Assembly (NCBI GenBank): GCA_903845295.1
Contig: CAIMWV010000010.1
Location: 1 to 56,434, forward strand
DNA from: Candidatus Staskawiczbacteria bacterium
GTDB taxonomy: Bacteria > Patescibacteriota > Minisyncoccia > Minisyncoccales > Staskawiczbacteraceae
Direction of reading: 5' to 3'
DNA: 56,434 bases
Part shown: positions 23,382 through 46,012 of the stretch, in pieces
How the letters are laid out: each line of letters opens with the position of its first letter
Numbering within the stretch: the first letter of the stretch is position 1
Program-made: the position numbers and the translations under genes
Notes under the pieces: generated by a model
Databases searched by the model: none
What the model saw: only the letters and a program-made list of their open reading frames with translations
Told to the model about the DNA's origin: nothing

Positions 23382-23386
23382 AATAT

Positions 23387-25168: not shown

Positions 25169-25173
25169 ATTTT

Positions 25174-28733: not shown

Positions 28734-30467
28734 TTATGCTACTTCCGCTTGATAACATTTTTCGCAGTAAACGATTTCCGGCCTATCAGGGGCATAGCTG
28801 GTTTCGAATTCATTGAGGCATCGTCCTGTATGATGCGGATGGTTCTTATCACACATGCACTGACGATGCCAAAGTTTTTGCGGATTCTTCTTTTTGAATC
28901 TTTGAATGTGCCTGCAATTAAAACATAATCTTGGTAGAGGAATGCCCATTTTGCGGTACAATTGCAATTCTTCGGGAGTAATTTTAAAAGCGCTTACACA
29001 ACCATCATTGCATTTACCTTCGTGTTCGCAGCCAATTATTTCATTAACAATTTCATCTTTAGTTTCGGCAATTGATTGAGGAAGATCTTTTGGGCTTATG
29101 GTTATTTTATAATTTCTTTCCTCCGGCTCTCTCCAAGAATATCCTAACTTTACTGCCTGATCTCTAGTCTTTTGAGCATATTCCTGAGCAAATGTTTCGT
29201 TATAAGCAAAAGGAGCTAAAATTGGCGGAAAAAATTCGCCATATTTATATTCAATACCGCTTTTGTCTATGTATGGTTGCGAATTCATATGTTCAATTAT
29301 TTTTGGTAAAAGCTGATTATATTCCTCTTTTGTATATTGTTTGTTAAGTATGCAGTATTCCTTTTTTCTCATGCACACGCAGCCAAAAAGATTATTGGAA
29401 TTTTCGAAACTGTCGCAATATTGTAAATCAAAACCAACAAAGGATATAAAACTAAATTTTACATTGTTAATGCTTCCCGCGCCCAAAATCTCATAGCAAA
29501 AATTTGATTTATCAATAATAACATATGCGTCGTGGCAATTGCTTGAATTGTCTCCCCAAGTTACGTGTTTGCAGTCTTCAATAGTGTCGGACCCATAACA
29601 GTCAAAACTGTTTTTTGAGTTAGAAACATAATCGCCAACAACATTTGCATTCTGCAGGCCGTGCATATATTTTACAATACTGGTCGCGGAAAATTCCCGC
29701 GCTTTGTCTAAAACGGCATTAATTCCATTGTAGTTTTGTAAATTCAATTCTTTTATTTTTGCAGAATATTCTTCTTTTGAGTATTGCTCATTAAAAATGC
29801 AGTAGCTTTTGTTCTTAAGATTCACACAACCTACACAGTTCTGGCAGTTTGAACAATTTTTGCAGGCAAAAACATCCTGACAATTACTGCAATCATCCGA
29901 AAATTTTGCCATATAACACTTTTTGCAGCCAATACATTCGTAGCAAAACTCGCAATCATTCACAGTGTGACAATCGGACGTGTTTCTAGAGCGCATCAAG
30001 TGGTAAGAATAAAGCGAGTCTTCGTTGTTATCACTAACAAAAATCATATAACAATTTTTATTGTATGCCGCGCCGTTGGTGTAATCGCTGTTTGTTTGCT
30101 GAAAAACAAAAGAATAACAACGAGGCACCCTCAACTGAAGCTCTTTTAACTGCTCAAAAAATGGACGAGAAAAATCGTATTCTCTGCCATAGCTTGACGC
30201 ATCCCATTTGTCTGAGTGATAGCACTCGTTGCAGTAAACTATATAGGGAGACTTTGGCGAATAAATAGAAATTATATTTTTCTTGCATAAGTCGCAATTC
30301 CTGCGGTATAGTGTTCTTTCGTTTCTCCAAACAACCCTCCTTACAAACCGGCACTCCGGGCAAAACGTCGGTGCAGGGACTTTTATCTTTTCATAGAACG
30401 CAAAATCCTCTGCTTCGATGACGAAGTCCTGTTTGCAGTTTTGGCACTGCTTTGTTTGGGATTCCAT
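28734..30467 (-). CDS. Cys-rich family protein, array copy 5
   Basis: Family blocks; ends YCEKCYQAEVA. Confidence 0.9.
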   Translation of the reverse strand: MESQTKQCQNCKQDFVIEAEDFAFYEKIKVPAPTFCPECRFVRRVVWRNERTLYRRNCDLCKKNIISIYSPKSPYIVYCNECYHSDKWDASSYGREYDFSRPFFEQLKELQLRVPRCYSFVFQQTNSDYTNGAAYNKNCYMIFVSDNNEDSLYSYHLMRSRNTSDCHTVNDCEFCYECIGCKKCYMAKFSDDCSNCQDVFACKNCSNCQNCVGCVNLKNKSYCIFNEQYSKEEYSAKIKELNLQNYNGINAVLDKAREFSATSIVKYMHGLQNANVVGDYVSNSKNSFDCYGSDTIEDCKHVTWGDNSSNCHDAYVIIDKSNFCYEILGAGSINNVKFSFISFVGFDLQYCDSFENSNNLFGCVCMRKKEYCILNKQYTKEEYNQLLPKIIEHMNSQPYIDKSGIEYKYGEFFPPILAPFAYNETFAQEYAQKTRDQAVKLGYSWREPEERNYKITISPKDLPQSIAETKDEIVNEIIGCEHEGKCNDGCVSAFKITPEELQLYRKMGIPLPRLCFNCRHIQRFKKKNPQKLWHRQCMCDKNHPHHTGRCLNEFETSYAPDRPEIVYCEKCYQAEVA

Positions 30468-30487: not shown

Positions 30488-31948
30488 TTAAATTAATGGC
30501 TCTTCTGGTTTATCTTCTGACTTTTTAGCTTCTTCTGGTCCTTTTCCCTTGCCCTGAATTATAGACTTTTCGTGAGAACTCCTCATGATTTTTGACTCTT
30601 CCGATTCCATAAGCTTCTTTGCGGCCTCAGCTGAAATAGTATACTTTGCGCGGGATAGCTCAATAATTTCCTTTCTAAAAGACTTGTGAGTCGCCGGCAT
30701 AACTTTAAGGGTTTCAGCAGAAAAAGGGTCATAAGCTTCCCCATCAATAGTTTCTTTGATGTAAAAATTCTGGACTCCCAGGTTTACCATATCTTTAACG
30801 CCAAATATCGGCGCCATTTCCGGCTCCAATTTGACCGCATCTTCACCGCCCACACGGAACACAATAATGGTTCCCGTATTTCCTAAAACCGCCTGCTGGA
30901 CTTTAGGAATAAGCTGTCCCATATATTGGTGTGCCACGGTAAGGCAAATGGCGTATTTGCGGGCTTCTGATAATATATTTTCAAAGGTTTCAGTCATAAG
31001 ATTATGGAACTCGTCAACATAGAGATAAAAATCTTTTCTTTCGTCTTCCGGCAGAGCGGCCCGCGCCATACCCGCTTGCTTGATTTTCGTAATAAACATT
31101 GAACCAAAAAAACTGGCGTTCTCTTCCCCTAGCTTGCCTTTGCACAAATTAATTAAAATAATTTTTCCTTCATTCATCAGTTTTTCCAAATCAACCTTGT
31201 TTTCTTCCTGGCCGAAAATACCGCGCAAAGCCGGATCTGACAAAAACTGCGCCAGCTTATTCACTAAAGGAATAATGGCTTCGGTATCGTATTTTTCCGA
31301 CCAGTCGGCAAACTCAATGGCCCAGAACCGTTTGACCATGTCGTCCTGAATATATTCAACCACCAGCTGGCGGTAGTTTCTGTCGGTAAGCATGGAAATC
31401 ATACCCCGCATGGTGCCGTGCGGATAATCCAAAAGAGCTAAACAAGTGAAGCGGAACACGTGCTCAAGCCTGGGCGTCCAATTGGCGCCGAATTGCCTTT
31501 CCAACACTTCAATCAAGCCTTGGGTTAACTGGTGCTTGAAGCCCGGGTCAATATTAGCTAAAGGATTGAAAGAAATGGGGAATTTGGCGTCGGAAGGGTC
31601 GATAAGCACTACGTCATCTATCCTGTCTTCCGGGATAAAATCCAAAATTGCATCCACAACATCACCGTGTGGGTCAATAAAACAAAGCCCGTGGTTGTAC
31701 CCGATGTCCTGGCGGACAAAAAGCTCCAGAAGCTTGGACTTGCCTACTCCGGATTTACCGACAATATACACATGCCTGCGCCTGTCTACTCTCTTAATGC
31801 CAAAAATAAACTTTTGCTCTTGCAAAGCCGCTTCATAATTGGTTTTGCCGATAAATGAGCAGTCTTCGGGCTCAACTGTACCATAAATAGGCAGCTCCGG
31901 AGGCGGAGGCGCCAATTTAAATCTGCGGATTCTATTTTTATCTACCAT
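30488..31948 (-). CDS. VirD4/TraD/TrwB-like (FtsK-HerA superfamily) ATPase 2; start MVDKNR
   Basis: DRRRH.YIVGKSGVGKS (Walker A), IDPHGD, LYVDEF (Walker B), SEARKY, AHQY, GNTGT...FRVG. The upstream ORF extension runs through a repeat element. Confidence 0.88.
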   Translation of the reverse strand: MVDKNRIRRFKLAPPPPELPIYGTVEPEDCSFIGKTNYEAALQEQKFIFGIKRVDRRRHVYIVGKSGVGKSKLLELFVRQDIGYNHGLCFIDPHGDVVDAILDFIPEDRIDDVVLIDPSDAKFPISFNPLANIDPGFKHQLTQGLIEVLERQFGANWTPRLEHVFRFTCLALLDYPHGTMRGMISMLTDRNYRQLVVEYIQDDMVKRFWAIEFADWSEKYDTEAIIPLVNKLAQFLSDPALRGIFGQEENKVDLEKLMNEGKIILINLCKGKLGEENASFFGSMFITKIKQAGMARAALPEDERKDFYLYVDEFHNLMTETFENILSEARKYAICLTVAHQYMGQLIPKVQQAVLGNTGTIIVFRVGGEDAVKLEPEMAPIFGVKDMVNLGVQNFYIKETIDGEAYDPFSAETLKVMPATHKSFRKEIIELSRAKYTISAEAAKKLMESEESKIMRSSHEKSIIQGKGKGPEEAKKSEDKPEEPLI

Positions 31949-32095
31949 GGTTTTGCGAGCGAGGCGAGCGAAACTACTTCGAAATTCTTGGCCATATGAT
32001 ATATCGAATACATTGGTGCCAAAATTTCGCTGAACACCTTGCTTTTCGTGAGCAAAAAGCGAACGCTTCGTCCCATTTAGCGGGACGCTGAACAC
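31949..32095 (-). repeat. GTGTTCAGCG-hairpin elements, tandem copies B and C
   Basis: Two GTGTTCAGCG...CGAAG units. Copy B keeps the AATGTATTCGATATAT loop of copy A with a different stem. Confidence 0.75.
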
Positions 32096-32540: not shown

Positions 32541-32815
32541 AGGGTGGCGTTACAATATTAGGACCAACTTAGCGGAGTGAATTAAGGCAATATTCAAGGC
32601 GCGAGGAGCGAACCTAATGCCTATGCGCATTGTTCGATCTGAAGCAACGAAGAAGATTGCCTTAATTCGCCCGCCCTTCGGGAAGTCCAAAAAATGGCTG
32701 ATTTCTGTGGGACTCCTCGTCGGCGTAACGCAGAGGTTACAACCTCCTCGTCGTGCCTCGAAATCATCTCATTTTTTGACTTCTAAATTTGGCCATAATA
32801 TTGTAACGCCACCCT
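32541..32815. mobile_element. MITE (~275 bp) with perfect 20-bp terminal inverted repeats
   Basis: AGGGTGGCGTTACAATATTA ... TAATATTGTAACGCCACCCT; internal hairpins; right end overlaps the TAG stop of array copy 4. Confidence 0.85.
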
Positions 32816-34532
32816 AGGCTACCTCGGCCTGGTAGCAACTTTCGCAGTAGACTATCTCCGGACGGTCCGGAAAATAGGATGTTTCAAATTCGTTGGGGCA
32901 TCGTCCTGTATGATGCGGGTGATTTTTATCGCACATACACTGGCGATGCCAGAGTTTGCGCGGATTGCGCCTCGCCAATCGTTCCTGCAGACGACAAGCA
33001 GAACACTTGTGCGGAATTGGCAGATTAAACCGGCGATAAAATTGGAGTTCTGCAGGGTGCAATCTAAAGGCCGTAGCGCAACGCAGATGGCTTGCCTTCT
33101 CTTTTTCCGAATCTTGCGAACTGCAGCTTATAATCTCCTGAAGAATTGAGTCGGTTACGTCTCCAATTTTTGCCGGAAGCTTTTCATGAGGCAAAGTAAC
33201 TTTGTAATCCCGCGCATCACGGTCAAACCATTCCCAGCCTCGTGCAATAACTTCATTTTTTGTAAGCGGAAAATAATCCTGCGCTATGGTGTCATTATAA
33301 GGAAACGGGGAAATTGCAATGGGAAAAAATTCTCCCCATTCTTTGGTTTTTCTCATGTGCTCAATAATTTTTTCTTTCAAGATATGATATTCTTTTTCGG
33401 AATATTGCTTATTAAAAATACAATATGATTTTTTGCGCAACGACATGCAACCAAAAATATCATGGCAATTAAAGTTGAGCTCTGAATAGTGCGAATCATG
33501 GTTATACCATGACTTTGCCATACCAATACATTTTGCGCCCCATCCCGACCCTTCCATCTCGTAATCAAGTTCGTTATCAAGGGTTTCTGTCAAATCCATA
33601 CAATCACGAGCTTCCCAAGCGTCTTGCGCATAACTCGTGTTCTCGGAAAAGCGAACATTGAAACCATAACGAACATTTTTGTCGTAACCTATGTTTTCTC
33701 CCGTAGAGTTAATCGCCTTGCGGCCCTGGTAATATCTTCTTGGATGTTTTACCCAAAAATCTGCAACACGTTTTTTCATTTTTTGCACATCTTCGTACGC
33801 CCAAGAAATCTCTGTCAGACGCTTTTGAAATTCTTCTTTGGTAAGTTGTTCATTAAACCAGCAGTATGATTTACCGCGCAAACCCACGCAACCGAAACAA
33901 TTATTACACCCAGGGCAATCCATAGAAAAATACAAATCATTTGCGTCATGGCAATCTTCAATAAAAAAACACTTATAACAATCGCCACAATTTAATGATT
34001 CGTACATAATTTCGCATTCTTTCGTGGCCCATGAATCTACGCAATCTTTACTTTTTTGATACCAATTCCCATACATGCAATCCTCGCTCTCGCCACTGGC
34101 TACAACCATATAGCAATTTTTATTACGCTCCGATTGGTTGCTATATTCTGAATTGGCACTTTGAGAATTTGCTAACGCAATGCGGGGAACTTTATGCCGG
34201 AATTCAAAAAATTGTTCAAAGAAAGGTCTGAAAAAATCAAAATCTTGCCCAAACGCCATCGGATCCCATTTATCCGACCACCAGCAAGGCTGGCAATACA
34301 CCGGACCGGGATAGGATGAATTATAAATCGAAACCATGCTTTTGCCGCATAGCGAACAGTTGCGCTTATAAAAATTCCATTCATTCCGGTTGGCGGCGCG
34401 CCGCTGGTACCGACAATCAGGACAAAATGTCGGAGCCGGAACTTTAATTTTATCGTAAAACGCAAAATCATCGGGCTCAATCGTAAAGTCCTGCTTACAA
34501 TTTTGGCATTGTTTGGTTTCTGATTGGATCAT
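32814..34532 (-). CDS. Cys-rich family protein, array copy 4 (start MIQSETK)
   Basis: Family blocks; ATGA overlap with copy 3. Confidence 0.9.
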   Translation of the reverse strand: MIQSETKQCQNCKQDFTIEPDDFAFYDKIKVPAPTFCPDCRYQRRAANRNEWNFYKRNCSLCGKSMVSIYNSSYPGPVYCQPCWWSDKWDPMAFGQDFDFFRPFFEQFFEFRHKVPRIALANSQSANSEYSNQSERNKNCYMVVASGESEDCMYGNWYQKSKDCVDSWATKECEIMYESLNCGDCYKCFFIEDCHDANDLYFSMDCPGCNNCFGCVGLRGKSYCWFNEQLTKEEFQKRLTEISWAYEDVQKMKKRVADFWVKHPRRYYQGRKAINSTGENIGYDKNVRYGFNVRFSENTSYAQDAWEARDCMDLTETLDNELDYEMEGSGWGAKCIGMAKSWYNHDSHYSELNFNCHDIFGCMSLRKKSYCIFNKQYSEKEYHILKEKIIEHMRKTKEWGEFFPIAISPFPYNDTIAQDYFPLTKNEVIARGWEWFDRDARDYKVTLPHEKLPAKIGDVTDSILQEIISCSSQDSEKEKASHLRCATAFRLHPAELQFYRRFNLPIPHKCSACRLQERLARRNPRKLWHRQCMCDKNHPHHTGRCPNEFETSYFPDRPEIVYCESCYQAEVA

Positions 34533-36265
34533 ACTACTTCGTTTAAATAACATTTCTCGCAAAAAATTTTAAATTGTTTTTGTTTTTCTTCGTCATAAAG
34601 CGAAAGGGATTTTTCACCGCAATTGGGGCAAACAAAAGGAAAAAGATCAAAAGGATGCTCAAAAAGAGCCCTTTCCATAATACGTTGCCAGGGGTGTTTA
34701 GTGGGAATTGGCAAATTCATGTGCCGATAGAATTTAAGCTCTTCAGCAATGATTTTAAAGGGCCGACCGGTTGTTTCACACCGGATAGCATCATTTAAAA
34801 TAGAGTCATCAACATTTTTAATATCGCTTGGAATTTCCTGGATGTCACGCAAATTGATTCCAGCTGGTATTTGTGACTCTGGTTCAAGATACCAAGGAAT
34901 GCCACGTTCAGCCGCCTCTTTTTCGCTAATCGGATAATATTTTTGACCCCTGCTTGCCTGATATGGGAAAAGTCCAAAAGAAAGAGAAAATAACTCTCCG
35001 TACTCGCCGTCATTAAGCATTCTTAGTTTAATTTCATCAACTAACGGCCAATAGTCGTTTTCAGAATAGGGCTTGTTAAAAATATGAAATTTTTTGTTTT
35101 TCAGCCCGACGCAAGCAAAACAATTTTGACAATTAGTGCACTCCGAAGAGTATTCAATCCCATTACTTGCCCGGATATAAAGACTGAAAAGAACATTGCT
35201 GCTGCCAGTGCCATTCACCACCTCATAGATTTTCTCGGCTTTATCGGCGTCATAGCAGGAATCCATTATATCTTTGACCCCCCCGAAGGTCTCTACAAAA
35301 CGAAGATTCTGCCCCTCGGGGCCGTCAAAGGCCCAAAAACAATCCTTGCAATTATTAAGCCCGTTGCCAACGCAGTTTATAGTATTGGTAAGCCACAAGG
35401 AACGATGCAGGGCATTTTTGTAAACGCCGTCAAAACGCCGGACAAGATCCTGGAAAACGACCCGATCGCCCAAGTTCAAGCCGGCGATTTTTGCCTGGTA
35501 GTCTTGCTTGCTTAATTGTTTATTCTCAAAAAAATAAGATTTGTTCCTGAGATTCGATGAAAGGAAACAATTATTACAATTTTTGCAATCATACAGGAAG
35601 GCTGAATCCAGGCATTGCACAGACCCGATGCTAAAAATGCAGTGGCTGCAACGGTCAGCGCCCACGCAGGAATAACAGAATTCACAATTCCAAACCCTGG
35701 AGCAGTCAACGCAGAATTTGGAGAATCTCACATCGTCACCATAAGAGCAGTCCTCGCTGTGGAAACCGCCGGAAAAATAGTAATTGTTTTTCCCCCAGCG
35801 GCCACCTACGGAATATTCCGAATTTATCGATGTGATATCCCTCTCGAGAGCCAGGTGCGGCACATTGAAAAATAGTTCTTTAAACTGTTCAAAAAATTTC
35901 CGGCCAGGGTTATATGAACGGCCGTATGATGTTGCTTCCCAGGAATCGGAGTACCAGTAATTAACATCGTAAACCTTGTGGGGCGATGAGGCCGGGAAAA
36001 TAGTAACAATATTCTCGTTGTGGCCGGGGGCCGAGCACGGCCGTTTAAAAAATTTCGGCGTACGCATCAGCAAACCGAACCGGCGGATTTTGCGGCACTT
36101 CGGGCATAGGGTCGGCGGCGGCACCCGGAACATGCGATAAAAATTGATATCCCCTGCCTCCACTTTGAATTTTTGCTTACATTCTAAACACACCCTCTCG
36201 TGGGGAACAAGGTCTTTTAAAATCTTATCAAGTGCTTCGTCAAATTTTGGTGTTTTGGAAATCAT
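34529..36265 (-). CDS. Cys-rich family protein, array copy 3 (divergent subtype; start MISKTPK)
   Basis: N-terminal extension, CLEC..F.VE..D..FY..F.VPPPT.CPKCR, CETTGRPF, PTKHP; ATGA overlap with copy 2. Confidence 0.88.
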   Translation of the reverse strand: MISKTPKFDEALDKILKDLVPHERVCLECKQKFKVEAGDINFYRMFRVPPPTLCPKCRKIRRFGLLMRTPKFFKRPCSAPGHNENIVTIFPASSPHKVYDVNYWYSDSWEATSYGRSYNPGRKFFEQFKELFFNVPHLALERDITSINSEYSVGGRWGKNNYYFSGGFHSEDCSYGDDVRFSKFCVDCSRVWNCEFCYSCVGADRCSHCIFSIGSVQCLDSAFLYDCKNCNNCFLSSNLRNKSYFFENKQLSKQDYQAKIAGLNLGDRVVFQDLVRRFDGVYKNALHRSLWLTNTINCVGNGLNNCKDCFWAFDGPEGQNLRFVETFGGVKDIMDSCYDADKAEKIYEVVNGTGSSNVLFSLYIRASNGIEYSSECTNCQNCFACVGLKNKKFHIFNKPYSENDYWPLVDEIKLRMLNDGEYGELFSLSFGLFPYQASRGQKYYPISEKEAAERGIPWYLEPESQIPAGINLRDIQEIPSDIKNVDDSILNDAIRCETTGRPFKIIAEELKFYRHMNLPIPTKHPWQRIMERALFEHPFDLFPFVCPNCGEKSLSLYDEEKQKQFKIFCEKCYLNEVV

Positions 36266-38052
36266 ATTACTTCCGCTTGATAACATTGTTCGCAGTAAAC
36301 TATTTCCGGGCGGTCCGGAGCATAAGAAGTTTCAAATTCGTTTGGGCATTTTCCGCTATGGTGTGGGTGGTTGTTTGCCTGTGGTGAGCTTGTCGAACCA
36401 TCGCACATGCACTTTCTGTGCCACAGATGCACAGGATTCCTTAATTTTGTTCTTTCAAAATGGCGAGAGTTAAAACATCTTTGCGGAAGCGAAATATTCA
36501 TTCTCTTATAAAAAGCTAATTCTTCGGGAGTGATTTTGAAAGCTTTCGAACAATTATGCTCAAGCGCTTTTTCTTCGCCCTCCTCGTCCCAAGACCTGCA
36601 AAGAACAACCTCTTTTAAAATCGAATCTTTCACGCCTTCAAGATTAGCAGGAATATCCTTCCATGACATTGTATGATTATATTCTTTGCTCGTCATATCA
36701 CGCCAAGAAAATCCTGCCTCAATCGCTCCTTTTTTAGTAAAAGGGAGGTATTCTTGCGCAATTGTTTCGTTATAGCCATGCGGGCAAAATTCGGGCGGGA
36801 AAAACTCGCCGTATTTATACACCCTGCCTTTTGCATCAACGTAGGGCATGTCGTCCATATGTTTTTTGATTTTAGGGACAAGGGCTTCGTATTCTTTTTT
36901 GGTGTACTGCTTGTTTAAAATACAATACTCTTTATTCCTCATTCCAATGCATCCAAATAAATTGTGCGCTTCGTGGCAAAAGATCGAATATTCAATATTT
37001 CTTACAGATGTATATACAAATGCCGAAAATTTTATATTTGAAGCCTCAATAGCCACCGTAAGCCCTTCATATATAAGTTCGACGCCATCACCAGGGTAAG
37101 AATAATCATAACAATCCTTGGCGCCGGGCGGGAACACTACGTTCTGGCAATATCTAACATTTTCAGCATTTGAAACGCGAAATGAATTACGCGTTTCTTT
37201 TGCGTGGTAAATGTAATCTCCTGACACGTTTGAGGTGTGGCGCGCATGAATGTATTTAACCGGCACTGACAGCTTAAATTTATTGAACTCTGCTTTTGCT
37301 TTTTCCAAGCCATCAATGGAACTGAGATTAAACGACTTTATTTTATCTTTATATTCTTCTTTGGAATATGGTTTATTGAAAATGTGATAATTTTTGTTCC
37401 TCAACCCGGCGCATCCAAAGCAGTTTGAGCACCCGGCGCAATCTTGGCACAAAATTAACTCTTGCGAATTATCGCAATCTACGCAACACATAAGCTTATA
37501 AGATTTATTTACAAGAAAACATTCATAGCAAAGTTCACAATCGCTGACAAACAGGCAATCTGCGCAATTCTTTGAATTGTCTAAACCAACACTATATAAG
37601 CAGTCCTCGTCTGTATTGCCGTGAAAAACCAAATAACAATTCTTAACAGATCTGCAGCCTATATAGTAATCGCTGTTTATATTATTTACCGCGCTTCTGC
37701 TCGGTAGCGGAACTTCATGGAGCAATTCTTTGACTTGGGTCAGAAAAGGACGAGAAAAATCAATTTCTTTGCCATACTTTAGAGAATCCCAGTTGTCAGA
37801 CCACCAATAATCTCTTTCGTAAACTTTAACCGGAGCATCGGGAGCAAATGCTGAAAATATTAACTGGCCCGTGGCATCACACTTGCGCTTATATAGGGTT
37901 TTTTCATTTCTCCAAGTTATTCTCCGGCGTAATCTACAATCAGGGCACCACGTGGGTGGCGGAACTTTCATTTTTTCATAAAACGCAAAATCATCGGGCT
38001 CGATGACAAAGTCCTTTTTGCAATTTTGGCATTGTTTGGTTTCTGATTGCAT
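36262..38052 (-). CDS. Cys-rich family protein, array copy 2 (start MQSETK)
   Basis: Family blocks; in-frame REP encoding GSTSSP at 36382-36400. Confidence 0.9.
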   Translation of the reverse strand: MQSETKQCQNCKKDFVIEPDDFAFYEKMKVPPPTWCPDCRLRRRITWRNEKTLYKRKCDATGQLIFSAFAPDAPVKVYERDYWWSDNWDSLKYGKEIDFSRPFLTQVKELLHEVPLPSRSAVNNINSDYYIGCRSVKNCYLVFHGNTDEDCLYSVGLDNSKNCADCLFVSDCELCYECFLVNKSYKLMCCVDCDNSQELILCQDCAGCSNCFGCAGLRNKNYHIFNKPYSKEEYKDKIKSFNLSSIDGLEKAKAEFNKFKLSVPVKYIHARHTSNVSGDYIYHAKETRNSFRVSNAENVRYCQNVVFPPGAKDCYDYSYPGDGVELIYEGLTVAIEASNIKFSAFVYTSVRNIEYSIFCHEAHNLFGCIGMRNKEYCILNKQYTKKEYEALVPKIKKHMDDMPYVDAKGRVYKYGEFFPPEFCPHGYNETIAQEYLPFTKKGAIEAGFSWRDMTSKEYNHTMSWKDIPANLEGVKDSILKEVVLCRSWDEEGEEKALEHNCSKAFKITPEELAFYKRMNISLPQRCFNSRHFERTKLRNPVHLWHRKCMCDGSTSSPQANNHPHHSGKCPNEFETSYAPDRPEIVYCEQCYQAEVI

Positions 38053-38057
38053 AGTAA

Positions 38058-39833
38058 TTAAATTACTTCTTCTTGGTAGCACTGCTCGCAGTAGATAATT
38101 TCTTCGCGACCCGGAGCATATGGAGTTTCAAACTCATTTGGACAATGCCCATCGCCGTGAGAATGTTTTGTGGTGTTTTGATAAACTCCATTCTCTGATT
38201 TTTGTCCGGCACACTGGCATTTTCGATGATATAGCTTTAGTGGATTTCTTTGCGCCAAACGCTCGTAGTGCCTGCAGTTGGGGCACAATCTTGGCAAGGG
38301 CAGATTCATTTTTCTGTAGAATTGAAGTTCGTCTTTGATGATTTTGAATGCGGTTGTACACTGATGCACACACTTACCTTCGTGCGCACAGCTTATTACT
38401 TCGTTTAAAATCGAATCAGAAATGTCTTTGATATCGTCAAGTAAATCTAAATAAGAAACGTCCGGCTTATAATCCTTGGTTTCTGGATCTCTCCATGTAT
38501 AACCTCTCTTTAAAATCTCATCCCTTGTGAGTGGAAAATATTCCTGCGCAATTGTCTCATTATATGCAAACGGGCTAATCTCGGGCGGGAAAAATTCTCC
38601 ATATTTGTATACCCGGCCTTTTACATCGATATATGGCGTTTCGTTCATGTGCTCGATAATTTTGGGGACAAGAGCTTCGTATTCTTCCTTAGTATATTGT
38701 TTATTTAAGATGCAATATTTTTTGTTTCGGAGTCCGACGCATCCGAAAAGATTCGAGGAATTATGGCAACAATATGTATATTGCGTATCATGGCAAACAT
38801 GGGTAAACACGGCAAAACAGCAATGTGACGCCTGAACGCCTGTATCTATAAGCTCATACATCAAGTTTGCGTTGCCGCCAAAACCGTATCCGTCATAAAT
38901 ATCCTTGCCTTGCCAGCCGTGCATATCGAATTTAGAATCTTCTGTTTCGCCAAACACATCAAAGCATTCGTGCACATTCTTTGAACTCATAATATTATCG
39001 CCAGTCGAGTTTGTCGATCTTATAATTGAGGCGAACCGCCGCGGGAATTTTTTCGAAAACTCGCTAAATTTTTCTCGCAACGCCGTAAGACTCTTATAAC
39101 TCCCCAAATTCAATTTTTCGATTTCTTTTTTATAGTCCTCTTTAGAATATGGCATATTCCATATGTGGTAAGACTTGTTTCTCAAATTCACGCACCCGAA
39201 ACAATTATTCGCATTCGCGCACGAACGCAGAAAATATGACCCCAGGCTGTTGTCAGAATCATACGCAAAAAACACTTTGGATAAATTCGCGCTTATTACG
39301 TCCTCGTAACATTGCTCCCCGTCCTCCATAATATAAAGATCCATCGAATCCTTACATCTCAATGCGCCATTAGAATAATGTGTGTTTTCGTTGGTAAACG
39401 ACGCATACGTAAGATAGCAATCCTTCATATCAGCATTATGGTTGCCATACTCGCTATTCCTTACGTTGTTGTTTGCTAAGTTTGGAAGCGGAGCTAATTC
39501 AAATAATTCTTTAAACTGCTTAAAAAACGTTTTTGAAAAGTCATAATCGCGGCCGGATTTAAGCTGGTCCCATTTGTCTGACCACCAATAGTCTCTTTCA
39601 TAAACGACAAGGGGTTGCTCTGGTGCGAACATTGTAATAATATCCTTGCCGGTAGCGTCGCACTTTCTATGGTAAAGAGTGCGCTCATTTCTCCAACTCA
39701 TACGCCGGATAATTCTGCACTCCGGGCAAAACGTCGGAGGGAGCACCTTCATCTTCTCATAAAAATCAAAATCCTCGGGCTCGATAGTGAACTCGTTTTT
39801 ACAATTTTGGCATTGTTTGGTCTCTTTCAACAT
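38058..39833 (-). CDS. Cys-rich family protein, array copy 1 (start MLKETK)
   Basis: Family blocks; ends YCEQCYQEEVI. Confidence 0.9.
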   Translation of the reverse strand: MLKETKQCQNCKNEFTIEPEDFDFYEKMKVLPPTFCPECRIIRRMSWRNERTLYHRKCDATGKDIITMFAPEQPLVVYERDYWWSDKWDQLKSGRDYDFSKTFFKQFKELFELAPLPNLANNNVRNSEYGNHNADMKDCYLTYASFTNENTHYSNGALRCKDSMDLYIMEDGEQCYEDVISANLSKVFFAYDSDNSLGSYFLRSCANANNCFGCVNLRNKSYHIWNMPYSKEDYKKEIEKLNLGSYKSLTALREKFSEFSKKFPRRFASIIRSTNSTGDNIMSSKNVHECFDVFGETEDSKFDMHGWQGKDIYDGYGFGGNANLMYELIDTGVQASHCCFAVFTHVCHDTQYTYCCHNSSNLFGCVGLRNKKYCILNKQYTKEEYEALVPKIIEHMNETPYIDVKGRVYKYGEFFPPEISPFAYNETIAQEYFPLTRDEILKRGYTWRDPETKDYKPDVSYLDLLDDIKDISDSILNEVISCAHEGKCVHQCTTAFKIIKDELQFYRKMNLPLPRLCPNCRHYERLAQRNPLKLYHRKCQCAGQKSENGVYQNTTKHSHGDGHCPNEFETPYAPGREEIIYCEQCYQEEVI

Positions 39834-39864
39834 GTTTAAGTTAATTTTATTGATTAATCCTACC

Positions 39865-39895
39865 AAAAAACCGCTTGGAATCCAAGCGGTTTTTT
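39865..39895. terminator. Intrinsic terminator-like hairpin between ATPase 1 and the array
   Basis: AAAAAACCGCTTGGA-A-TCCAAGCGGTTTTTT. Confidence 0.75.
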
Positions 39896-39904
39896 ATTTC
39901 CTAC

Positions 39905-41908
39905 CTATTTGTTTTGGGCTCCCCTCTCTTCTAGCGGGGGATTTTCTTGGCCAGGAAAAGATGTTTTGTCTTCGTACTTTTCTTCTTCAATTCTCTTCTC
40001 TAGATCCTCTTTAGAGTTTTTTGGCCCTGTGTCTTCTCCGGCTTTTTGGAGAGCTTGCGTTAAAGTTTTTCGAAGATCTTCAACATCAACTGATTTTCTT
40101 TCTTTTTTATCTTTCCTGCTCTTGTTAAATGGCACATTCTCTCCCTTTTGCATTATCTCATTCAAAGAAAAAGTTTTTGTCGCGGCTTTGTTGGGGACCC
40201 TCGATTGCTCTGCGATTTGATTTTTTTCCTTACGAGGTGATTCTTTGCGGGAACTTGGAGACCCGCCTGCGCGGGCAGGCGGCCCGAATTCTATGCCTAA
40301 ATCTCCCAAAGCCTCATTTCCCGCTGGTCTCTTTCCTGACTGGCCCGCCTGCGTAGGGACGCTGGATGCCGCTCTCACTGGCACCGTTGGTTTGCTGGCT
40401 ATTTCCCCGGCTTTCAGCTTTTTCAAACAGCTTTTGCAGTAAACAGGCCTCCCGGCGACCGGCTCAAAAATAACTTTAGTGTCTTTTCCACAATTTGAGC
40501 ACTTGACATCGTATAACTTTGTCGAATCAGAAGATCGGGGAGCGTTCGATTTATATACAGCCTTAGGAAAAATCTGGGGATTAGAAAGATCGGAAGGGTT
40601 CTGAGCACTAGGAACTTCCTGATTGGCCGCCCAGCGATTAATTTCATCTTCAACAACCTTTACAGTATGGGCATATTTTGCCCTGGAAATTTTAATTATT
40701 TCTTCCCGTTTTTTATCGTCCTTAACGAAGGGAGGAATGGTAATAGTTGTGGCAGAAAAAGGCCTGGAAGTAATGCCGTCTATCATGAGTTTTATATAAA
40801 TATTTCGATTCGCCAAACGGATTAAATCATTTTGTAAAAATTCAGGCATGTATTCTTGCTCTAAAAATTCCGCGTCAGCTGCTCCCACTCTAAAAGTAAT
40901 CATTGTACCCACGTTGCCAAAAACAGCGTCCCTGACAGCAGTGCTTGTATCAGTGGTCAGCTGCCCGACGTATTGATGGGCAATAGTCAGATCCAAGCGG
41001 TATTTACGGGCCTCTGACAAGATGTTCACGAAAGAATCTGTAGCGAAGTTTTGGAATTCATCAACATATAAATAAAAATCTTTTCTTTCATCTTCAGGAA
41101 TTCTGACGCGCTCCATGGCCGCCAGCTGTATTTTGGTAATAACCATAGCTCCTAAAATAGCCGCGTTATCTTCGCCAATTCTACCCTTGGAAACGTTAAC
41201 CAGCAGAATTTTTTGATTATTCATTATTTCATCAATATCAATGGTGTTCTTGGCCTGGCCGACAATATTCCTCACAAAAGAAACATTCAGAAACTGTCCG
41301 ACTTTATTTTGGACGGGAGCAATAGCTTCATTGCGGTACCTGGACTCCCACTCTTCATATTCGTTGACCCAAAATGATTTTACCACGGGGTCTTTGAGGT
41401 TGTTAATGATTTTTTGCCGGTAGTCCCTGTCAACCAGCATTCTTGGTATGCCTAAGAGGGTGGTTCCGGGAGTATCCAGCAAAGCTAAAATGCAATTGGC
41501 AAGGATATATTCCATACGAGCCGACCATACATTGGCCCAAATTTTAGTAAAAATGCCGATCAATCCCGATGCTATTAAATGCTTATATCTTGGATCTGGC
41601 ACATCCATAATATTAAAACTAACGGGATATTCCATATCCGCGGGATTAAAATAAACCACATCATTGATCCGATGAGGGGGGATATTATCCAAAATTTCTT
41701 CAACAAACTCACCGTGAGGGTCGATGATAGCAAGCCCTTGTCCATTTTCAATATCCTGCAGAGCCATGTTCTTTAAAAACTGGGTTTTACCGGTTCCGGT
41801 TTTTCCGATTACATACATGTGCTGGCGCCGATCGACTCTTTTAATTCCGAATTTTTGTTCGCCCCTGCGAAAGTTTGTTTTGGCAATAAAAGTTATATCC
41901 TTTGACAT
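39905..41908 (-). CDS. VirD4/TraD/TrwB-like ATPase 1 with CxxC-x17-CxxC zinc ribbon and low-complexity tail
   Basis: GKTGTGKT, IDPHGE, LYVDEFQNF, SEARKY; CSNC-GKDTKVIFEPVAGRPVY-CKSC. Confidence 0.9.
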   Translation of the reverse strand: MSKDITFIAKTNFRRGEQKFGIKRVDRRQHMYVIGKTGTGKTQFLKNMALQDIENGQGLAIIDPHGEFVEEILDNIPPHRINDVVYFNPADMEYPVSFNIMDVPDPRYKHLIASGLIGIFTKIWANVWSARMEYILANCILALLDTPGTTLLGIPRMLVDRDYRQKIINNLKDPVVKSFWVNEYEEWESRYRNEAIAPVQNKVGQFLNVSFVRNIVGQAKNTIDIDEIMNNQKILLVNVSKGRIGEDNAAILGAMVITKIQLAAMERVRIPEDERKDFYLYVDEFQNFATDSFVNILSEARKYRLDLTIAHQYVGQLTTDTSTAVRDAVFGNVGTMITFRVGAADAEFLEQEYMPEFLQNDLIRLANRNIYIKLMIDGITSRPFSATTITIPPFVKDDKKREEIIKISRAKYAHTVKVVEDEINRWAANQEVPSAQNPSDLSNPQIFPKAVYKSNAPRSSDSTKLYDVKCSNCGKDTKVIFEPVAGRPVYCKSCLKKLKAGEIASKPTVPVRAASSVPTQAGQSGKRPAGNEALGDLGIEFGPPARAGGSPSSRKESPRKEKNQIAEQSRVPNKAATKTFSLNEIMQKGENVPFNKSRKDKKERKSVDVEDLRKTLTQALQKAGEDTGPKNSKEDLEKRIEEEKYEDKTSFPGQENPPLEERGAQNK

Positions 41909-41925
41909 AAATATATTAAAGCATA

Positions 41926-43416
41926 TTATTCCTCAACCGGCAAATTAGCTGGCGGACCGGCTTTCTTTGATTCAATCTTGACCATGGTTGGCGCCACCAT
42001 CCCAGACACTCTTAACGGGAAGTGCCATAGCGTTGCCATTTCTTCTGTACTTAAAATTGGGCACAAATCATGCCTGTTTGGATAAAGCGGGGGAAATCTT
42101 AAAACAGCCATCCTAAACATTTTTCTGGCTCTCAGGAATACTCTCCTGTTTCTCCAAAAAAAGTGGACTCTCGGCCTTGTTGAGCCCTGGAATCTCCACT
42201 CATTCATATTGGCAGTTAAAAAATGACCCATATACGTACGCGTTATAACTCTGTTGGCCGCCCTCCAATGTTCTCTTTTGGCAACATAAACTCCTCTTAT
42301 ATTTGTCCTAAACGCGGGCTTCTTCATTTTATTTTCAATTTCAGTGATAATCTCCCTTTCTCCCGGAGTCAGCGAAATTTGCCGCTCGCCTGTTTCTTCA
42401 TCCTCTTCAGATGCCCAAGAATACGACGCTGATTCTCCTTCGCCTTCTTTTTCCGGACCCATGGCAAGTTCTCGCGCAACGCTTGCTAAATCTTGCACGA
42501 GCGTAGGCTCTTTCTTCTCCGGACGCTTTGCTAATTTATTAATTATTTTAACTCCTTCTTTTTTCCAATCCGGCTCGTCATAATCTCCAACCGGCACCGT
42601 GGTAAACTGCACCCAGTAATGTTCTCCGGGGCCTAATTTAGACATTGCTTCCAATAAAGAAATTATCGGGTCAAGTCTTTTTTCTTCAGCTGCAATTCTT
42701 TCGCCCTGCGGTTCAAAAAACTTTTCGTATGTCCGCATGGGATAGGCATCCTCTTTGAAGAAATCCCAATCTTCGCCGTACATATCCCATTCTTCGTTTG
42801 GAACTGTCGGGGGCACTAATTTTACATAATCTGTGGCTTCGTGAATTTCAATATCGGGATAGTGGCCGTAAAGCGCAGACTCAATTGAGGTTCTGTGCTG
42901 CTGCAAAGCTCTTACATAGTAATGTATATTGCCCTCAATGCTGGCAATTTCCCAAGAGCACCAAAATGGCCCGTTGCCTAATTCTCCATCGCACCACCTT
43001 TCGCGGAAGTTTCCCACATCCATAAGCGGCCAGATAGCTGCAAACACGTCTTCCATGGCTTTGAGGGGCATAAGCATCGCTTCGAGCGGGATGACTTCTA
43101 ATAAGACCCATTTATGTTTGGCATAATCAAAATCCCAGTTAAGCCACCAGAGATAGAGTGTTTTTAGCTGCTCCATCAGCATTAATGGCAAAAATAGCCA
43201 CCACCAAACTCTCAAAAATGGAACCCATAAAATAATTATAAGCAAGATTACCCACCAAAAGGGATCCCAGACAATTTTTTTTACCTGTTCCCACCAGAAT
43301 GGATCTGGGATCAATACAATAGCCAGGGGCACAAGCACCCACCAAAATAAATAAGGAGGCAATAAAAGAGTCAAAACCAGGATTATCCACCTGAATGCAT
43401 GCGAGGACTGTTTCAT
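41926..43416 (-). CDS. Membrane-anchored hypothetical protein adjacent to the ATPases
   Basis: Trp-rich N-terminal TMs; SWEIAS..G.I.YY; YPD.EI.E..DY; LSTEE.ATLWHFP; PP.NLP. Confidence 0.8.
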   Translation of the reverse strand: MKQSSHAFRWIILVLTLLLPPYLFWWVLVPLAIVLIPDPFWWEQVKKIVWDPFWWVILLIIILWVPFLRVWWWLFLPLMLMEQLKTLYLWWLNWDFDYAKHKWVLLEVIPLEAMLMPLKAMEDVFAAIWPLMDVGNFRERWCDGELGNGPFWCSWEIASIEGNIHYYVRALQQHRTSIESALYGHYPDIEIHEATDYVKLVPPTVPNEEWDMYGEDWDFFKEDAYPMRTYEKFFEPQGERIAAEEKRLDPIISLLEAMSKLGPGEHYWVQFTTVPVGDYDEPDWKKEGVKIINKLAKRPEKKEPTLVQDLASVARELAMGPEKEGEGESASYSWASEEDEETGERQISLTPGEREIITEIENKMKKPAFRTNIRGVYVAKREHWRAANRVITRTYMGHFLTANMNEWRFQGSTRPRVHFFWRNRRVFLRARKMFRMAVLRFPPLYPNRHDLCPILSTEEMATLWHFPLRVSGMVAPTMVKIESKKAGPPANLPVEE

Positions 43417-43637
43417 ATTCCAGAAGCCCGGATTACAACGGGCAAATATTGAATAATAATAGAAACTATTGAAATGACAAAAAATCCCATTGCGAAAAAC
43501 TCAAAACTAAAAACTGCCGGCACTATAACAAAGGAAATCTTTTTTAAATGCCAGTAAAAAATAAACGAAAAAAGAACAATATAAAAAATTGCCGTCATCG
43601 CAAATAAAACAATTAATCCTATATCAAAAACATCCAT
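43413..43637 (-). CDS. Small two-TM membrane protein (start uncertain)
   Basis: Hydrophobic ORF with FIFYWH; its stop overlaps the start of the next gene. Confidence 0.6.
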   Translation of the reverse strand: MDVFDIGLIVLFAMTAIFYIVLFSFIFYWHLKKISFVIVPAVFSFEFFAMGFFVISIVSIIIQYLPVVIRASGI

Positions 43638-43880
43638 AACTTTTACAAAGCAAAAGAAATTCAAAATCCAAATTGCTAAATCCAAAATGTATTTTTAACT
43701 TAATTATTTGAATACTTGGATTTGTTTTGGATTTTAAGCTTCGTACTTTGGATTTATTAACTAATTATATCCCAATAAAAGTTTGCAAGCAATATGGCAA
43801 TTTACTAACTATCTTTTTTATGATAATACATATTTAGCACATTGATTTGCTGGTCAACTCTCAATGCGGAAGGGAAAAAC

Positions 43881-44983: not shown

Positions 44984-46012
44984 TTAACTCTGCTCCACGC
45001 CCCTTATGAAATATCTGTCGTTAGAATCTTTTTCAAAGTGTTTTTTATTGTTTAAGTTCATCAGCACGGTATTTTTTGCAACAAGCCTTTGAGACAAAAC
45101 TTGTTTCACAACTTCATCTCTGTGTGTCGGCTCATTTTTGTCTTTCAAAACTTTAGTGATTATATCTTTAATGGTCCCTGGAACATATCCCCACTCTGAT
45201 AATGCGTAGGTTCCACGGCCCACCAACACAAACCTTGCGTCCTTTATCAATTCGTTATGAACTGTTTGAGGATAAGTTTTTTTGTTCGGCATATTATAAT
45301 CGGATTTGTCTATCAGTTTTGCTACTTCCGTAAAGTGCAAAGGTTTCCCATGTTTCTTAAAAACTAAAAATGCTTTGTCTTTTACTCCTCTCGGTTTTAT
45401 TTCCGGCCATTCAACTAATCCCATAACTCCCTCTTTGGTGGGTTGGATCCTTTTTGAAATTTCAAGATAAGACAACGTGGCCGGTTCTGAAAGTCCCTGT
45501 TTTGATGCGACTTCGGCATAAAAATTTTTGGCGGGAACCGGATGGCCTATTTTTTGCATTTGTGAAACTAAAGAGTTTAAAGTGCCTTTAACTTTTTCCT
45601 GAGAACTGGGCATATTTGACCAGAAGTAGTGGTAATCCTTTTTCTCGCAAACTTTTGAAAATTGTTCTCCCAATGTCAATAAAAACAAAACATAGGGTTT
45701 CTGGTTTTTACCGCCTAATTCCTCTAAAACATTCTCTTCTTTCTTAAAGCCTCCCTGCCCATCAAAATAAGCGGAAAATTCTGCATAAATGGCGTCTAAT
45801 GCCTCTTTGTTATTTTTTCTCACAAAGCTAAAACCGGCCTCTTCTATTTGGCGCACCCTTTCGCGAGTTATGCCCAATGCTTTGCCGATGGATTCCAAAG
45901 TCTCCGGTTTTCCGGTTTTTACCCCGAATCTGCCGTCAAAAATATCTTTGGTCTTTGGGCTAAGGCCTTTGGTGAACTTTTGGTATATTAGTTTGTAATT
46001 AATTTTATCCAT
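44984..46012 (-). CDS. Sigma70 region-4 HTH plus winged-helix (RNAP delta/HARE-HTH-like) protein
   Basis: RFG.....TLESIG..LGITRERVRQIE; PLHF.EVA; TVHNELIKD.RFVLVGRG.YAL.EWGY. Confidence 0.82.
   Translation of the reverse strand: MDKINYKLIYQKFTKGLSPKTKDIFDGRFGVKTGKPETLESIGKALGITRERVRQIEEAGFSFVRKNNKEALDAIYAEFSAYFDGQGGFKKEENVLEELGGKNQKPYVLFLLTLGEQFSKVCEKKDYHYFWSNMPSSQEKVKGTLNSLVSQMQKIGHPVPAKNFYAEVASKQGLSEPATLSYLEISKRIQPTKEGVMGLVEWPEIKPRGVKDKAFLVFKKHGKPLHFTEVAKLIDKSDYNMPNKKTYPQTVHNELIKDARFVLVGRGTYALSEWGYVPGTIKDIITKVLKDKNEPTHRDEVVKQVLSQRLVAKNTVLMNLNNKKHFEKDSNDRYFIRGVEQS

Follow-up and report, generated by a model that had tools for sequence, protein, structure and literature searches.

The 56,434-nucleotide stretch of DNA analysed here (the window) is contig CAIMWV010000010.1 of a Candidatus Staskawiczbacteria genome, and corresponds to contig C10 of the 35 contigs that make up this 779 kb assembly. 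On its reverse strand, where all of the window genes described below reside, lies a gene for a coupling-protein ATPase of the TrwB/VirD4 type (ATPase 1, 39905–41908). Downstream of this gene is an array of 13 paralogous genes (13922–39866) for Cys-rich proteins of 554–606 amino acids with 27–42 Cys residues each, which is interrupted by a second coupling-type ATPase gene (ATPase 2, 30488–32095) and by a nucleotidyltransferase-like gene (15665–16285). All 13 family members and two of the three coupling-type ATPases of the genome are found at this one locus, and the closest public relatives of the window genes come from Candidatus Staskawiczbacteria and other Parcubacteria/Patescibacteria. A first-pass annotation of the window had noted that ATPase 1 carries the same CxxC-x17-CxxC zinc-ribbon pattern as the array proteins, and had proposed that this shared module could link the array to the ATPase functionally. 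Our analysis supports the homology of the ribbons, but gene distribution and gene neighbourhoods speak against the link, and we favour, with moderate confidence, a reading in which the ribbon is a shared building block rather than a dedicated connection between array and ATPase.

Genomes of Patescibacteria encode two or three VirD4-type ATPases each, mostly far from a secretion channel. PMC12102498 reports 5,713 VirD4-type homologues in 2,918 genomes, just 148 of them near virB4, raises exaptation, and describes one Patescibacteria VirD4-type ATPase as dispensable for epibiotic growth; the word 'zinc' does not occur in its text. The ATPases studied here resemble these orphan homologues in occurring as two to three copies per genome, away from virB4. 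A literature search returned no paper on the ribbon of coupling ATPases or on the array family; the supplements of PMC12102498 might list these ATPases.

ATPase 1 is a soluble protein of 667 amino acids that shares the P-loop coupling-ATPase fold of TrwB (R388) and VirD4. Its TrwB-type ATPase domain (residues 1–430) contains both a Walker A motif (GKTGTGKT) and a Walker B motif (YVDEF). Pfam scores for this protein are 57.0 bits for PF10412 (cut-off 20.5), 25.9 for PF12696 and 36.3 for PF01935, and its top Foldseek matches are the TrwB structures 1e9s and 1e9r (E 2e-10, template modelling (TM) score by target 0.60–0.63). Unlike TrwB and VirD4, the polypeptide has no N-terminal membrane anchor, with Walker A beginning already at residue 35; the anchor is instead probably encoded by a separate upstream gene, and a zinc ribbon is present on the C-terminal arm. 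In an AlphaFold2 model built on a 58-sequence alignment, the ATPase domain has a predicted local distance difference test score (pLDDT) near 90, the linker at residues 436–462 falls below 50, and the tail at residues 510–667 is mostly below 50 as well, in six stretches. The ribbon between linker and tail is modelled at pLDDT 78–94, with strands at residues 466–469 and 476–479 and a helix at residues 492–499.

The zinc module of ATPase 1 occupies residues 464–498 (40415–40519), with Cys residues at positions 470, 473, 491 and 494. Residues 470–494 read CSNC-GKDTKVIFEPVAGRPVY-CKSC, exactly the pattern with a 17-residue spacer that the first-pass annotation had described for the span 40420–40520 (residues 464–496). 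The module is a genuine member of the PF23477 (zf_Tbcl_2) and TIGR04272 family, exceeding both curated cut-offs: 48.9 bits for PF23477 on residues 464–497 (cut-off 27; Pfam protein scan) and 50.4 bits for TIGR04272 on residues 464–498 (cut-off 36; NCBIfam protein scan), the latter being the model named in the first-pass annotation. A six-frame search of the genome gives 54.0 bits to PF23477. The domain family is already known, and public annotation labels many orthologues of this ATPase 'CxxC-x17-CxxC domain-containing protein'. The ribbon would be expected to bind zinc, because small proteins of the same family from Methanosarcina mazei, A00184 and A01980, have been shown to do so by inductively coupled plasma mass spectrometry (PMC12704099); zinc binding is the only function on record for the family. 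ATPase 2 (535 amino acids), which shares 49% identity with ATPase 1 across 414 residues (PF10412, 33.9 bits), ends with a short C-terminal tail about 50 residues past the ATPase domain. It contains five Cys residues but, as noted previously, no CxxC-x17-CxxC motif and no PF23477 match in motif, Pfam and NCBIfam scans.

Alignment of the array proteins reveals a common architecture: an N-terminal CxxC-x24-CxxC finger that begins at about residue 8, an internal ribbon, a Cys-rich core, a second finger and a C-terminal ribbon. A two-finger cassette, consisting of a PF13451-like finger and a ribbon, therefore stands at both ends of a Cys-rich beta-solenoid. The first finger shows no more than a resemblance to PF13451 (zf_Tbcl), with 22.2 bits for copy 11 and 15.3–17.8 bits for copies 13, 2, 9 and 4 against a cut-off of 24 bits. 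Both of the array ribbons singled out in the first-pass annotation are present with a 17-residue spacer, namely CAKC-x17-CESC at the C terminus of copy 13 (residues 549–573) and CNLC-x17-CYSC in the internal ribbon of copy 12 (residues 58–82). The spacers of these two ribbons and that of ATPase 1 share G1-K2, P10 and V16-Y17, as had been read by eye, together with an aromatic residue at position 8. In copies 3, 6, 11 and 13 the first knuckle of the C-terminal ribbon is plain CxxC, copy 6 lacking the last Cys of the ribbon. The remaining nine copies have an expanded form of this knuckle (C-x-C ... H-x-H ... C), where an expansion in 'several' paralogues had been reported. The internal ribbon retains an intact CxxC-x17-CxxC motif in copies 4, 5, 10 and 12.

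Homology between the ATPase and array ribbons has to be judged by profile evidence rather than by the pattern itself. Among the 13,300 six-frame open reading frames (ORFs) of at least 30 amino acids in this genome, the bare pattern C..C.{17}C..C occurs 13 times, 12 of them at this locus. Six of these 12 are incidental occurrences inside Cys-rich cores, and the bare pattern is consequently weak evidence here; profile comparisons are what prove decisive for the homology argued from these sequences. Curated models deliver a mixed outcome. ATPase 1 scores well above both thresholds, but copy 13 alone of the array proteins reaches the Pfam cut-off and none of the 13 reaches that of TIGR04272 (best score 23.9) in protein-level scans, in which copies 5, 10 and 12 score 14.8–14.9 bits and eight of the 13 have no match at E≤0.1. 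With the six-frame search, copies 13 and 11 exceed the Pfam cut-off and 11 of the 13 copies match PF23477 at E≤1. Over the whole genome this search yields 17 matches at E≤1, 15 of which fall in the locus (ATPase 1 plus 14 in the 11 matching paralogues). The two remaining matches are one weak match and a 59-residue protein on contig C25 (49.5 bits).

Profile hidden Markov models (HMMs) restricted to one group of ribbons recover the other group. An HMM built from 59 ATPase ribbons, all from other genomes, retrieves ATPase 1 (70 bits) from the 13,300 ORFs, followed by the C25 protein (44 bits), copy 13 (E 3.3e-6), copy 11 (E 2.6e-4), copy 10 (E 1.1e-3) and copy 12 (E 4.7e-3), with noise starting at E 0.2. 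Reciprocally, when the HMMs are built only from array ribbons, whatever their genome, ATPase 1 comes up at E 2e-4 and 2.2e-3, ranking first or second among the matches outside the family; the C25 protein and ATPase 1 lead these non-family matches, and noise begins at E 0.4 and 0.08. Profile–profile alignment by hhalign gives the ATPase ribbon a probability of 97.0 with the terminal array ribbon and 96.6 with the internal one (scores 41.7 and 39.0). The array proteins' other finger scores 14.6–15.7 (probability 8–13) in the same comparison, and 20 column shuffles score 5.8–12.3 (probability ≤3.5). Finally, the AlphaFold2 models of ATPase 1 and copy 13 place the same strand-knuckle-strand-helix elements in identical order and spacing. 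The copy 13 model, which is based on a 143-sequence alignment (overall pLDDT 90.8, predicted TM score 0.90), has strands at residues 545–548, 555–558 and 567–569, Cys pairs at 549/552 and 570/573, and a helix at residues 571–578. The predicted fold is a beta-hairpin that carries one Cys knuckle, followed by a short helix whose beginning holds the second Cys pair. Because of the reciprocal HMM matches, the hhalign probability of 97 versus 8–13 for the other finger, and the matching predicted layout, the ATPase 1 and array ribbons are best regarded as one domain family. The paralogue ribbons thus do score against the ATPase ribbon family, in agreement with the homology asserted in the first-pass annotation.

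Common ancestry does not extend to any sign of a special kinship between the two groups as judged by these scores. The ATPase ribbon is nearer to the stand-alone C25 protein, its closest relative within the genome (44 bits), than to the array ribbons (20.5 bits). This ranking bears on the possibility that the ribbons pair with one another, through zinc-mediated or beta-sheet dimers, and so cluster array proteins on a hexameric ATPase. Such homotypic docking would draw on a common fold and family, which is all that speaks for it apart from the tandem double copies seen in small proteins elsewhere in the phylum. The stronger similarity of the ATPase ribbon to a stand-alone protein and the differing surface charges make it very improbable, as do the distribution arguments given below for a cargo role of the array proteins.

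Indeed, the net charges of the two groups are opposite. ATPase ribbons average +3.5 over 31 residues (n=59), whereas array ribbons average −1.3 in their plain terminal form (n=30) and −0.45 in their internal form (n=33), and the last 31 residues of 143 array-family members average −3.2. The basic charge of the ATPase ribbon would suit a nucleic acid, and it is conceivable that both ribbons bind the same third party, whether a shared protein or nucleic acid on which the DNA-translocase-like motor would act, without contacting each other. The coupling-ATPase family is DNA-associated (PF10412; HerA and TrwB matches), and in one source a member of the family is called 'Zn ribbon nucleic-acid-binding protein', which is a name only. 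In addition, the top sequence matches of the ribbon among solved structures are RNA-binding eS27 ribbons, which have a CxxC ... CxxC arrangement of similar length. However, these matches are non-significant (E 0.063–0.8, with nothing significant in the search of PDB sequences), and the S27e models of NCBIfam and Pfam match at E 0.008–0.02, below every threshold, so that the ATPase ribbon is not a member of that family and eS27 only illustrates what such a ribbon can do, namely bind RNA. The neutral to acidic paralogue ribbons (−1.3 and −3.2) appear ill-suited to nucleic acid, and the charge contrast argues against a common ligand of this kind. Furthermore, the internal ribbon has lost zinc ligands in nine of the 13 copies and is still modelled as a hairpin in copy 13, which points to a structural role, and no ligand other than zinc, whose binding was shown for the small Methanosarcina proteins (PMC12704099), is known for the domain. 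A common ligand is therefore quite unlikely in our estimation.

The structural contexts of the two ribbons also differ. In ATPase 1 the ribbon hangs as a knob from a disordered tether, whereas the array ribbon belongs to a confidently modelled body, the last four 10-residue blocks of copy 13 having pLDDT values of 87–96. The Cys-less internal ribbon of copy 13 is likewise modelled as a hairpin (pLDDT 93–96); this hairpin is kept without its Cys residues, which indicates a structural role, and it looks as though the zinc site of the internal ribbon became dispensable.

How often ribbon and array occur together across Patescibacteria was established from several samples. The coupling ATPase domain is present at E≤1e-60 in 299 of 301 sampled genomes, a tally that includes one unpublished genome (G153), and the array family in only 18 of them. 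Of 101 sampled genomes, 55 contain PF23477, chiefly in frames of 55–300 amino acids with one or two copies; in this sample it occurs in ATPase-sized frames of nine other genomes and in array-sized frames of a few. The array family gave no match in eight of the nine other genomes that have an ATPase ribbon. The fusion of ATPase and ribbon is ancient and widely distributed: all of the best 120 database relatives of ATPase 1 (68–100% identity) contain PF23477. Among 75 complete ATPase 1 orthologues, which were drawn from 80 related loci after five had been dropped as truncated or broken, the motif is intact in 58, reduced to a three-Cys remnant in three and missing from 14. An array gene is present in the locus of 26 of the 58 ribbon-bearing orthologues, and the other 32 have none within 10 kb. 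Conversely, array genes occur next to ATPases that carry no ribbon. Five distant genomes with arrays yielded 42 PF23477 matches (E≤0.05) and 17 ATPase matches, and no PF23477 match lies inside any of the ATPase matches; in three of these genomes the array directly abuts a ribbon-less ATPase of 753–758 amino acids. The array family is itself large: at least 7,989 database sequences are related to it at E≤1e-5, and 1,939 clusters at 50% identity match its N-terminal cassette.

The gene neighbourhood tells the same story from both sides. Of the 80 ATPase-centred loci, 29 include array genes, which invariably lie on the same strand. Among 77 array-centred loci, a coupling-type ATPase lies within 10 kb in 29, again always on the same strand, and in the remaining 48 there is none. 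These 29 loci hold only an ATPase 2-type gene in 11 cases, only an ATPase 1-type gene in six and both in 12. Across the 77 array loci there are 23 ATPase 2-type genes versus 15 complete ATPase 1-type genes, and the ribbon is present on all 15 of the latter and on none of the 23. Arrays thus keep an ATPase neighbour without an ATPase ribbon, and ATPase 1 keeps its ribbon without an array; the data do not support the ribbon as the link. The best reading is that the tie between array and ATPase is a recurrent same-strand neighbourhood that is independent of the ATPase ribbon.

The same data bear on the idea that the array proteins are cargo whose terminal cassettes are read by the arm of ATPase 1, through a heterotypic contact between basic and acidic surfaces, which is the docking proposal of the first-pass annotation at its strongest. 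The recurrence of the same-strand neighbourhood (29 of 80 and 29 of 77 loci), the ribbon on 41 of 41 complete array-adjacent ATPase 1-type genes, the opposite net charges, the strong conservation of the paralogue termini, the flexible tether of the ATPase ribbon and the lack of a signal peptide on the array proteins would all fit this proposal. Nevertheless, arrays abut ribbon-less ATPase 2-type genes (ribbon on zero of 23), all five distant array genomes checked lack a ribbon on any coupling ATPase, ATPase 1 genes with a ribbon are frequent in loci and genomes that gave no array gene, and in 48 of the 77 array-centred loci no ATPase lies within 10 kb. The paralogue ribbons, moreover, lie within a confidently modelled body in the copy 13 model (pLDDT 87–96). 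We consider client recognition of this type unlikely.

We therefore return to the shared building block as our preferred reading. A promiscuous small zinc domain, widespread in Patescibacteria, would have been inherited by both ATPase 1 and the array proteins. In ATPase 1 it forms a small basic knob between a disordered linker of about 30 residues and a disordered tail of about 170 residues, and is probably part of a recruiting arm for adaptors or cargo, whereas in the array proteins it would serve mainly as a structural cap. The charges would allow docking or a common partner, but nothing here requires either. Several points weigh against this reading. Every array-adjacent complete ATPase 1 gene is ribboned (26 of 26 in the ATPase-centred and 15 of 15 in the array-centred set), and none of the 17 orthologues without a CxxC-x17-CxxC motif has an array gene in its locus. 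This 41 of 41 record suits a functional tie. Phylogenetic nesting of the array family within the ribbon-bearing clade would explain it equally well, and the loci are kin rather than independent. Opposite net charges, as calculated from the sequences, are compatible with a heterotypic contact. The N-terminal finger and the terminal ribbon (65% and 57% mean pairwise identity) are the most conserved parts of the paralogues, compared with 35–37% for the solenoid blocks and 30% for the connecting helices, and conserved termini are what would be expected of a recognition handle. An array or ribbon scored as not found depends on the genome samples and E-value thresholds used, and a diverged ribbon could escape; the sameness of the predicted fold is read from the order and spacing of secondary-structure elements only; and the proposed recruiting role of the arm is borrowed by analogy from the tails of TraD and DotL.

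The C-terminal tails of F-plasmid TraD, with TraM, and of Legionella DotL, with its adaptors, bind adaptors or cargo, and a DotL complex (6sz9) is among the Foldseek fold matches of ATPase 1. Like these tails, the C-terminal extension of ATPase 1 is disordered and bears a small element after the ATPase domain. Unlike them, the element is a folded zinc module rather than a short peptide or a helical adaptor platform. A side observation concerns the tail itself, in which residues 537–541 read L-G-I-E-F (40286–40300). The 58-sequence consensus at this site is LxxLGIEF, two ribbon-less ATPase 1 orthologues (L029 and L030) also keep the motif, and it looks like a linear binding motif that would be independent of the ribbon.

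If the shared ribbon is ordinary domain reuse, its value would lie in the testable pairings it suggests and in cautioning against taking it for the link. A conserved zinc module on one paralogue and an adjoining family of zinc-capped solenoids provide concrete candidates for a partner or client, and the more interesting lead is that this large solenoid family recurrently pairs with orphan coupling ATPases. A bolder and rather improbable extension holds that, in a clade of Parcubacteria, the orphan coupling ATPases and their split membrane partner form a dedicated machine for the handling or export of a large and old family of zinc-capped beta-solenoids, with the conserved acidic terminal cassette serving as an address tag that is read by the basic tethered ribbon and the tail of ATPase 1. 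If true, such reading of the cassette would be a mode of protein recognition that is not known for type IV coupling proteins.

Several features distinguish the ribbons of this locus from the stand-alone TIGR04272/PF23477 proteins. The ATPase 1 ribbon and the C25 protein belong to the same family as the Methanosarcina proteins, with four Cys residues and, in ATPase 1, the 17-residue spacer. In contrast to those small proteins, the module here is joined to a coupling-type ATPase and forms part of solenoid proteins of 554–606 amino acids, and the array versions are diverged, mostly below the curated cut-offs, acidic, and often expanded or degenerate at their knuckles. The C25 protein (C25 6634–6810, reverse strand; L164:1135–1311) has little beyond one ribbon in its 59 residues, with an 18-residue spacer (PF23477, 49.9 bits). 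A further small frame, from a distant genome (G029:C5:48913–49176, reverse strand, 103 amino acids), matches both positions 1–85 of the array profile and PF23477 (53.7 bits). It is a stand-alone finger-plus-ribbon cassette, and the terminal cassettes of the array proteins may derive from such proteins.

The 13 array copies are described below from the ATPase 1 end of the array, with bit scores referring to PF23477 in the six-frame genome search unless stated as protein. Copy 01 (38058–39866), whose true start is probably the ATG ahead of ETKQCQNC, has a terminal ribbon with a long expanded knuckle (17.6 bits) and an internal ribbon without its Cys residues. The terminal ribbon scores 16.2 bits in copy 02 (36262–38082). 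Copy 03 (34529–36286), the most divergent copy, has a plain CxxC terminal ribbon with a 19-residue spacer; it has no PF23477 match at E≤1 but reaches E 1.4e-5 with the family's own terminal-ribbon HMM. An intact internal ribbon is found at residue 69 of copy 04 (32814–34562; ribbon 34278–34373, 9.9 bits, E 0.85), and at residue 58 of copy 05 (28734–30467), where the internal ribbon (30210–30317) scores 19.5 bits and the terminal one 15.1 bits. Copy 06 (26959–28623) has three Cys residues and an Asp in its terminal ribbon and no PF23477 match at E≤1. Terminal ribbons score 16.5 bits in copy 07 (25174–26955), 17.1 bits in copy 08 (23387–25198) and 14.8 bits in copy 09 (21666–23420). Copy 10 (19861–21615) again has an intact internal ribbon at residue 58 (21367–21465, 14.5 bits) and a terminal ribbon of 17.6 bits, and copy 11 (18172–19857) has a plain CxxC terminal ribbon with a 19-residue spacer (18184–18282; 28.1 bits, or 22.5 bits as protein). 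The intact internal ribbon of copy 12 (16388–18133) lies at nucleotides 17882–17983 (20.5 bits), and its expanded terminal ribbon scores 14.5 bits. Copy 13 (13922–15661) ends with the plain CxxC-x17-CxxC ribbon (residues 545–579, nucleotides 13925–14029), which scores 32.5 bits in the six-frame search and 27.0 bits as protein, equal to the cut-off of 27, and 23.9 bits for TIGR04272 (cut-off 36).

Loss of zinc ligands and knuckle expansion follow their own patterns among these copies. At least two of the four Cys residues of the internal ribbon are gone in copies 1, 2, 3, 6, 7, 8, 9, 11 and 13. The expanded terminal knuckle (copies 1, 2, 4, 5, 7, 8, 9, 10 and 12; for example 16391–16480) consists of C-x-C, two His residues and a further Cys, in the forms CMCD..H.HH.G.C or the longer CQCAG...H.HG.G.C. 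As read from these residues, it has enough ligands for a putative second metal site. Relatives in other genomes show a third, short knuckle form, CMKxGC.

No Pfam or NCBIfam match clears its cut-off on the array proteins except PF23477 on copy 13, which stands exactly at the cut-off. For the copy 13 model, Foldseek and VIA-align return only generic beta-solenoid matches (TM≤0.11, Z≤5.8) and name no family. Residues 283–408 align with solenoid folds at Z 4–5.8 in VIA-align, and the weak Foldseek matches are left-handed beta-helices; the closest known solenoids are ice-binding proteins, the heads of YadA-like adhesins and left-handed beta-helix acyltransferases. Unlike these proteins, to which it has no sequence relation, copy 13 combines Cys-rich rungs with four zinc modules, and Z values in the range of a common arrangement with TM≤0.11 are all that the comparison yields. 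Searches with the N-terminal cassette recover mainly the same family of 520–600 amino acids with two or three matched stretches and no new architecture, and neighbours in the ESM Atlas are exclusively Minisyncoccota proteins without names. Against PHROGs the array proteins give weak matches only (E 7e-4 to 3e-3). They have no match in PADLOC, in which the ATPases show only weak HerA/mad8 matches, and a reading of the locus as a defence system was dropped on these results. A recent local expansion was also rejected, because every copy is nearer to a relative in another genome (44–85% identity) than to any copy in this one (33–54%); the copies are for the same reason old. A tblastn search of the 720-nucleotide gap that separates copy 04 from ATPase 2, together with further gaps, gave no array-gene remnant. 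A search of sequencing runs gave no RNA dataset and five DNA entries from two studies (freshwater sediment and freshwater metagenomes).

Directly upstream of ATPase 1 lies a gene for a membrane protein of 496 amino acids with a hydrophobic N terminus (41926–43416) and no Pfam match. It probably represents the membrane portion of a coupling protein that is split over two genes. Specifically, phrog_5156, a phage protein family of unknown function with 824 positions, is matched by the membrane protein at positions 156–291 (E 5.6e-8) and by ATPase 1 at positions 406–813 (E 3.9e-58), and ATPase frames of fused size (753–766 amino acids; L158, L160 and L161, in three distant genomes) weakly match the membrane protein as well. 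Because both phrog_5156 and these frames span the two genes, ATPase 1 and its upstream neighbour appear to be parts of one split protein. In most of the 80 related loci, the gene immediately upstream of the ATPase encodes a homologue of the membrane protein. Many ATPase orthologues occupy frames of up to about 1190 amino acids.

Despite its coupling-protein fold, ATPase 1 is not classed as a conjugative type IV coupling protein, because no type IV secretion system or relaxase family was found among the window ORFs scanned and its equivalog scores are below cut-off. None of the 17 window ORFs scanned with Pfam and NCBIfam belongs to the VirB4, VirB6 or relaxase families, in keeping with the rarity of virB4 near such homologues in PMC12102498, and the NCBIfam equivalog models TraD, CD1115 and CedD all score far below cut-off on window ORFs. 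The third coupling-type ATPase of the genome, an 826-residue protein of the fused form with its ATPase part at residues ~390–725, is encoded on contig C27 (24796–27276, equivalent to L163:8797–11277, forward strand). Its gene comes directly after a MacB/HlyD-type exporter, made up of genes for an HlyD-like protein, one ABC ATPase and two permeases of the MacB/FtsX type, and no type IV secretion parts are nearby.

Three further genes of the window deserve mention. The gene between array copies 12 and 13 (15665–16285, 206 amino acids) matches PF10706 at 24.6 bits (cut-off 21), with the ANT(2'')-Ia and Lnu models of NCBIfam far below their cut-offs. These weak matches indicate a nucleotidyltransferase fold, and nothing marks the gene as a resistance gene. 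A small hydrophobic ORF of 90 amino acids (43413–43685), with no Pfam or PHROG match, overlaps the start of the membrane-protein gene by 4 nucleotides, and from this overlap we infer that it belongs to the membrane-protein/ATPase unit. Finally, a 342-residue protein with a sigma-70 region 4 helix-turn-helix (41.6 bits) and a HARE-HTH domain (50.9 bits) is encoded at 44984–46012, about 1.3 kb upstream on the same strand of the small hydrophobic ORF that heads the run of membrane-protein, ATPase and array genes.

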